In this document: piece after piece, positions 61,174 to 61,275 of the stretch
Layout of the letters: each line of letters opens with the position of its first letter
How positions within the stretch are numbered: the stretch's first letter is position 1
From: Flavobacteriaceae bacterium
GTDB lineage: Bacteria > Bacteroidota > Bacteroidia > Flavobacteriales > Flavobacteriaceae
Assembly (NCBI GenBank): GCA_031277535.1
Contig: JAITMD010000014.1
Coordinates: 42,926 to 106,925 of the forward strand
Direction: 5' to 3'
Length of the DNA: 64,000 bases
Position numbers and translations under genes: made by a program
The notes under the pieces: generated by a model
Told to the model about the DNA's origin: nothing
Seen by the model: only the letters and a program-made list of their open reading frames with translations
The model's database searches: none

Positions 61174-61238
61174 TACAATGTTAAGTTTAAGTTAAGTCGG
61201 TATAAACTTAGTGACCTTCTTTTTAAACCAAAAATTTT

Positions 61239-61275
61239 CGGGAGTGAGTGGATTGTAAACGGGAGTGAGTGGATT
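61239..61275 (-). promoter_or_regulatory. Candidate LytTR binding site: 16-bp perfect direct repeat with 21-bp period
   Basis: CGGGAGTGAGTGGATT at 61239-61254 and 61260-61275, just upstream of a TTTG (-33) and TAAGTTTA (-7-like) on the minus strand. Confidence 0.7.

Follow-up and report, generated by a model that had tools for sequence, protein, structure and literature searches.

A 21-bp-period direct repeat upstream of a protease-SusC-SusD operon as a predicted LytTR operator in a Flavobacteriaceae bacterium

A pair of direct repeats located between a LytS-type sensor histidine kinase gene and a protease-SusC-SusD operon is proposed to serve the locus's own LytS-type two-component system as its operator, with a probability of about 0.8; the binding of the regulator, the activation and the transcription start are all predicted. 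The initial annotation of this DNA had already suggested a LytTR operator here, and the suggestion is now supported by the conservation of the repeat, its invariant spacing, a fixed gap to the -7 box, the co-occurrence of the regulator, and the presence of the same core near two other LytTR gene architectures. The layout is a well-known, textbook LytTR layout; the recognised DNA sequence appears to be undescribed.

The repeat pair and its locus

In the window (the whole stretch of 64,000 nucleotides that was analysed), the sequence CGGGAGTGAGTGGATT is present twice on the plus strand without any mismatch, and the two copies are 21 bp apart from start to start. Read on the minus strand, the pair is AATCCACTCACTCCCG-TTTAC-AATCCACTCACTCCCG (Table 1). 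The perfect 16-bp direct repeat with a 21-bp period had been described in the initial annotation, and exact matches were found at both positions, 61239 and 61260. The repeat was also said to be GC-rich, which is borne out by its G+C content of 56%, compared with 32% in the window and 33% in the intergenic region. When up to three mismatches were allowed, CGGGAGTGAGTGGATT had only these two matches within the window, and dinucleotide-preserving shuffles gave a mean of 0.15 matches, with two or more matches in 0/100 shuffles.

Within the 3.77-Mb genome, CGGGAGTGAGTGGATT is represented by these two copies and one unrelated match with two mismatches, so the repeat is not dispersed; a dispersed repetitive element was ruled out, because the 16-mer is confined to the repeat pair. 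A relaxed scan of the genome (TCACTC with at most one mismatch in one half, period 20-22) returned 36 matches, among which the studied site was the only intergenic one with both cores intact.

According to previous studies, LytTR operators consist of two repeats of 8-13 nt that are 11-13 nt apart, with a critical exact spacing and no common consensus, and the repeats are direct, rarely inverted (PMC4847170, PMC4064291). The studied site has this form of two direct repeats of ~8-13 nt, being made up of two perfect 16-nt copies that share a conserved 8-nt core. The 16-mer had been put forward as the motif; the perfect pair stands, but the conserved recognition core is only the 8-nt YTCACTCY and not the whole 16-mer.

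Table 1. Positions of the repeat pair, the predicted promoter elements and the genes of the locus in the window. Positions relative to the transcription start are predicted.
Feature	Position	Strand	Remarks
namZ	62840-63910	-	Upstream of the kinase gene
LytS-type sensor histidine kinase, 514 aa	61279-62823	-	Pfam His_kinase PF06580, E 4.9e-26
Distal repeat AATCCACTCACTCCCG	61260-61275	-	Core CTCACTCC 61269-61262; predicted ~-77 to -62 (core -71 to -64)
Proximal repeat AATCCACTCACTCCCG	61239-61254	-	Core CTCACTCC 61248-61241; predicted ~-56 to -41 (core -50 to -43)
-33-like TTTG	61229-61232	-	Predicted -34 to -31; weak or not conserved among close relatives
-7 box TAAGTTTA	61203-61210	-	Bacteroidota sigma-A type TAnnTTTG, last base off consensus
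Predicted transcription start	61198	-	From -7 box geometry; leader of 25 nt to the ATG at 61173
Exported Met-zincin metalloprotease, 867 aa, first operon gene	58570-61173	-	Pfam DUF5118-DUF5117-DUF4953, E 1.5e-112, 5.4e-56 and 8.4e-19
SusC/RagA-type TonB-dependent transporter, 1119 aa	55183-58542	-	TIGR04056, E 5e-213
SusD-like lipoprotein, 444 aa, last operon gene	53836-55170	-	Domain search
Strong intrinsic terminator, 11-bp stem and T run	53787-53813	-	Closes the protease-SusC-SusD operon
REC-LytTR response regulator, 254 aa, proposed binder	52953-53717	-	Pfam LytTR E 1.1e-17, REC E 3.5e-14

The genes of the locus are arranged on a single strand in the order kinase, repeat pair, protease, SusC, SusD, terminator and response regulator. 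The kinase, which has a periplasmic region of ~290 residues that matched no assigned domain, starts at an ATG 16 nt past the namZ stop codon and ends with a stop codon 3 nt ahead of the distal repeat. The response regulator gene has its own consensus -7 box (TACTTTTG) ~20 nt ahead of a GTG start. Both kinase and regulator appear to be expressed independently of the repeat, because the kinase gene follows namZ and the regulator gene is placed behind the terminator with its own -7 box. The unit downstream of the repeat is protease-SusC-SusD, probably a protein or peptide utilisation locus, and the regulator is insulated from the operon that it probably controls, so that there is no obvious positive autoregulation.

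Conservation of the site and its association with LytTR regulators

Four further genomes of the GTDB genus encode full-length relatives of the kinase (36-45% identity), and each of these genes is immediately followed by a direct repeat of 21-bp period, the core of which is CCAYTCACTCC or TTCACTCY. A scan with the pattern alone (YTCACTCY-N13-YTCACTCY, hereafter the dyad) over 401 genomes of the family gave 17 matches outside tandem arrays. Eight of these, the window among them, are flanked by orthologs of the kinase (32-38% identity) and of the protease (61-68% identity). Wider fetches showed a conserved kinase-dyad-protease-SusC-SusD unit, with the LytTR regulator gene located after SusD or directly upstream of the kinase gene.

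Among 26 unique orthologous sites, the 8-nt core carries ~2 bits per position in both copies, and the 21-bp period (cores 13 nt apart) is kept without exception, which is the spacing expected of a LytTR operator. The spacer and flanks drift, the rest of the intergenic region is not conserved between genera, and the identity of the kinase is as low as 32-57%.

Among 151 genomes sampled evenly from the genus, 18 have a protease ortholog (at least 66% identity), in each case with the dyad upstream (18/18); the dyad was found in 0/6 paralogous protease loci (~43% identity) of the same sample. The scan of named genomes yielded 80 loci, distributed over Myroides, Flavobacterium, Chryseobacterium, Empedobacter, Algoriella, Faecalibacter and Kaistella, the nearest of them belonging to Myroides species (84-88% identity), which makes a Myroides-like source of the window probable. 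The dyad is present in 78/79 usable loci: 76 fit the pattern, with the C/T alternative allowed at two positions per core, and two have one mismatch in one core. One locus was cut too short to judge, and one locus from a MAG (L162) has no dyad in the 143 nt covered. The initial annotation had named a lack of the repeat upstream of orthologous loci as a result that would refute its reading; the repeat is present in both the genus sample and the named genomes, and the reading withstood this check.

The presence of the regulator follows that of the dyad. An ortholog of the response regulator (E <=1e-55, 52-66% identity) is encoded in 17/18 dyad-bearing genomes and in 0/133 others of the 151-genome sample; in all 17, its gene shares the strand of the protease gene and is located ~7 kb downstream of the start of the latter. 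In other genera, the regulator gene has been relocated to just upstream of the kinase gene, still within the locus. A REC-LytTR gene was found in every locus fetched wide enough (16 genomes, including the window and genome G034), as expected if regulator and site are inherited together.

In genome G034 (locus L138, G034:C1:3512000-3531500), the protease gene stands alone on one strand, and the regulator, kinase, dyad, SusC and SusD follow one another on the other strand. Each unit possesses its own dyad with a 21-bp period, that of the protease unit with a 30-nt gap to TATTTTTA, and the regulator shows 42% identity, which is below the ortholog threshold. Judged from the arrangement of the sequences, this double dyad is what would be expected of a regulon site, not of neutral sequence.

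Six further matches of the scan (loci L074-L079, in genomes G064, G318, G087, G171, G217 and G373) are located directly after the stop codon of a ~296-aa membrane protein that carries a LytTR domain at its C-terminus (Pfam E 1.6e-11 and 4.2e-12), and upstream of genes for a TonB-dependent receptor and a DUF4249 lipoprotein. The membrane protein is multi-pass and has no receiver domain, and mnmG and an OmpH-like gene are conserved upstream of it; it is a candidate membrane-anchored one-component LytTR system. The sites of this class read ATTCACTCC-N12-ATTCACTCC and are followed by a TAnnTTGC promoter, the box of which starts 11 nt, namely one helical turn, further from the core. The TAnnTTGC box fits the promoter variant SM5 (PMC9723704).

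When the scan was extended to the phylum, kinase-dyad-protease loci were also found in a second family, and a single locus was found in a different order. In this single locus, ATTCACTCC-N12-ATTCACTCT precedes TATTTTTG by 30 nt, with a divergent LytS/LytTR pair on one side and a TonB receptor gene on the other. The motif had been expected to be of a Bacteroidota type; the evidence for this covers Flavobacteriales (two families) and one locus in another order of the same class, which is less than the phylum as a whole. In the family scan, 14/17 non-tandem matches adjoin a gene for a LytTR domain.

In the tree of LytTR domains, the studied regulator and the membrane-anchored class with the same core are not sister groups, so the shared core is not explicable by close kinship of the binding domains. 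The clade of the studied regulator includes three paralogous regulators of the same genome, yet no second strict dyad was found in that genome; specificity may in part depend on the bases that extend the core on its 5' side (CCA in this lineage). A PDB sequence search with the regulator matched receiver domains only, and the base-contacting residues could therefore not be mapped onto AgrA.

A real operator might also be read by another transcription factor that is encoded elsewhere (e.g., an AraC-type protein recognising direct repeats 21 bp apart), the LytTR system being a mere neighbour. Direct repeats are used by several regulator families, and there is no close kinship between the LytTR domains of the contexts in which the core is found. 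We consider such a factor unlikely, since the locus has no further conserved regulator gene, the dyad accompanies genes for LytTR domains in three contexts that are unrelated to one another, and it follows the presence and absence of the regulator ortholog over the 151 genomes.

The genome holds ~ten LytS/LytTR pairs, and a search for repeats with a period of 20-22 bp beside the other nine gave weak candidates only. One of these is GATAGGATGAACTG/GATAGATGAATTG, a direct repeat of 21-bp period upstream of another LytS-type kinase gene on contig C2 (~77856-77890). The regulator of this kinase belongs to the same LytTR clade as the studied regulator, and the repeat may be the operator of that system. 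On contig C15 (197992-202941), an ortholog of the TonB receptor and DUF4249 pair of the membrane-LytTR class is divergent from another LytS/LytTR pair, and no TCACTC dyad was found between them. It seems that the LytTR regulators and sites that serve the same TonB receptor/DUF4249 targets differ from genome to genome.

Promoter geometry and proposed mechanism

In the genome-wide map of transcription starts of F. psychrophilum, the sigma-A box TAnnTTTG was placed at -12 to -5 (PMC9723704), and this placement of the -7 box was applied to derive the positions of the repeats, TTTG and start given in Table 1. The TTTG and the TAAGTTTA box, both named in the initial annotation, are present on the minus strand as described there; the repeat, which was said to abut TTTG, is in fact separated from it by 6 nt. 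In the nearest relatives, the position of TTTG reads TTTTAAG, and all of them have a TAnnTTTN box at the conserved position. The -7 box of most orthologs ends in A or CG, not TG.

A -7 box of the form NAnnTTTN begins 31 nt past the proximal core (30-nt gap) in 11/11 aligned loci. The same offset is found in all 26 unique sites except the Chryseobacterium-type L100, where the box is 1 nt further away. The repeat pair is thus held in a fixed register just upstream of the target promoter, as is expected of a LytTR operator, the promoter and start being predicted ones.

A further, conserved direct repeat was observed at 61180-61197 on the minus strand (ACTTAAC-ttaa-ACTTAAC, period 11), within the predicted 25-nt leader. 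It takes the form ATTAAC-N4-A[CA]TTAAC in Myroides and Flavobacterium orthologs, and ATTTAAC-taaa-AGTTAAT in genome G451. This leader repeat could be a second operator (e.g., for a repressor at the transcription start) or part of the translation-initiation context.

If the repeat pair is the operator of the LytS-type system, activation of the operon might proceed as follows. The sensor kinase would phosphorylate the LytTR response regulator; two phosphorylated regulator molecules would then bind head-to-tail on the two YTCACTCY cores, which are 21 bp (two helical turns) apart, and would be centred near -46 and -67. The bound regulators would recruit or stabilise sigma-A RNA polymerase at the weak -33/-7 promoter (TTTG ... 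TAAGTTTA), and the Met-zincin protease-SusC-SusD operon would thereby be switched on. The promoter's own elements are presumed to be weak from the off-consensus -7 box and from the missing TTTG in the nearest relatives. The nature of the target genes makes it reasonable to guess that the signal is a product of protein or peptide breakdown.

The LytTR regulator could also bind here and act negatively or structurally, by blocking read-through from the kinase gene or by repressing the promoter. The distal repeat lies 3 nt past the kinase stop codon with no terminator between, so a bound protein would meet the read-through polymerase. Such a role is nevertheless improbable: the sites are wholly upstream of the -33 region, their helical register with the -7 box is fixed, and both promoter elements (-33 and -7) deviate from the consensus, all of which is the usual layout of activator-dependent promoters and LytTR activators; and the dyads of G034 and of the membrane-LytTR class precede promoters into which no kinase gene reads.

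Since no terminator intervenes, read-through from the kinase gene is possible, and the repeat might act as RNA, namely as a structured or protein-binding element of a kinase-protease transcript. This is a very improbable explanation, because folding is no better than that of shuffled sequences (z = +1.19; 181/200 shuffles fold at least as well), the fixed distance to the promoter box indicates a constraint at the DNA level, and the same dyad is found where the upstream gene differs. A terminator or RNA structure was likewise rejected, the repeats being direct and the fold z being +1.19. Finally, although the two copies are identical, as they would be after recent slippage, a neutral recent tandem duplication or chance repeat is excluded for practical purposes by the conservation data, as the core and spacing are kept over at least eight genera and the spacer sequence has wholly diverged.

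With the repeat pair taken as a LytTR operator, a broader proposal can be made, which is tentative and which we would at present rather doubt than accept: TTCACTCC-N13-TTCACTCC might be a general half-site pair for a large part of the LytTR regulators of the class Bacteroidia, including classical response regulators, membrane-anchored one-component proteins and divergent LytS/LytTR pairs, always in helical register with the -7 box (gaps of 30 or 41 nt). In that case, target prediction from sequence would become feasible for the regulator family that is the most numerous and the least understood in flavobacteria, and a LytTR-controlled protein-utilisation locus (protease and SusCD) would be revealed.

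LytS/LytTR pairs are among the commonest two-component systems of flavobacteria. The studied site supplies a precise and testable sequence for recognition (two copies of YTCACTCY, 21 bp apart), a promoter geometry that is fixed, and a defined target operon that encodes a secreted zinc protease (DUF4953) and a SusCD transporter; in Myroides, Flavobacterium and Chryseobacterium, it also ties a sensor to what is probably foraging for proteins or peptides. For genetics in these three genera it offers a ready inducible promoter-regulator pair, and it is useful for regulon prediction. Because the architecture is that of textbook LytTR systems, the site is useful more than surprising.

Comparison with known systems

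In the literature searched, we found no operator or defined target of a Bacteroidota LytTR regulator, no paper on LytTR control of a SusCD locus, and no paper on DUF4953/DUF5117. BguR, described in a preprint, was set aside as a precedent because it is a different type of regulator.

The nutrient-sensing systems BtsS/BtsR (YehU/YehT, target yjiY) and YpdA/YpdB (target yhjX) of E. coli resemble the studied system, as they also combine a PF06580-type kinase with a REC-LytTR regulator, and their sites likewise consist of two direct half-sites with a 21-bp period, ahead of a single target that functions in nutrient uptake. The YehT/BtsR site in the yjiY promoter oligo is ACCGCTTA-N13-ACCACTCA, and the YpdB site is GGCATTTCAT repeated (PMC4847170). 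The YehT site and the studied site have the same 8+13 layout and CACTC in common, and the repeat in the window contains TCCACTCA. The initial annotation was thus correct in noting a difference from the Firmicute LytTR consensus, but the site is not wholly unlike known ones. The best full-length NCBIfam models for the regulator are LytR (NF010684, 92 bits vs. a cut-off of 375) and BtsR (NF008677, 66.5 bits vs. a cut-off of 246). Orthology with BtsR or LytR was rejected, because both scores are far below the equivalog cut-offs, and the likeness is one of kind only. Unlike in the E. coli systems, the promoter here belongs to the Bacteroidota -33/-7 type, a secreted protease with a SusCD transporter takes the place of an inner-membrane carrier as the target, and the kinase has a different periplasmic domain.

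The operators of Firmicute quorum-sensing systems (AgrA P2/P3, ComE, PlnC/PlnD, VirR and FsrA) also comprise two direct repeats of 8-13 nt that are ~12 nt apart, located just upstream of the promoter of an activator-dependent operon, with critical spacing (PMC4064291, PMC4847170). However, the sequence of the studied site (TTCACTCC) is unrelated to theirs, and the sigma-factor promoter type differs, being of the Bacteroidota type. The studied locus has no gene for a peptide pheromone or exporter, and its regulator gene is located outside the activated operon, behind a terminator and with its own promoter.

The regulators of Bacteroidota polysaccharide-utilisation loci (hybrid two-component systems, SusR, and ECF sigma/anti-sigma pairs) are similar in that a sensor beside SusC/SusD controls this pair together with a degradative enzyme. 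The studied locus differs from them in using a classical two-protein LytS/LytTR system, and in that its enzyme is a metalloprotease and not a glycoside hydrolase.
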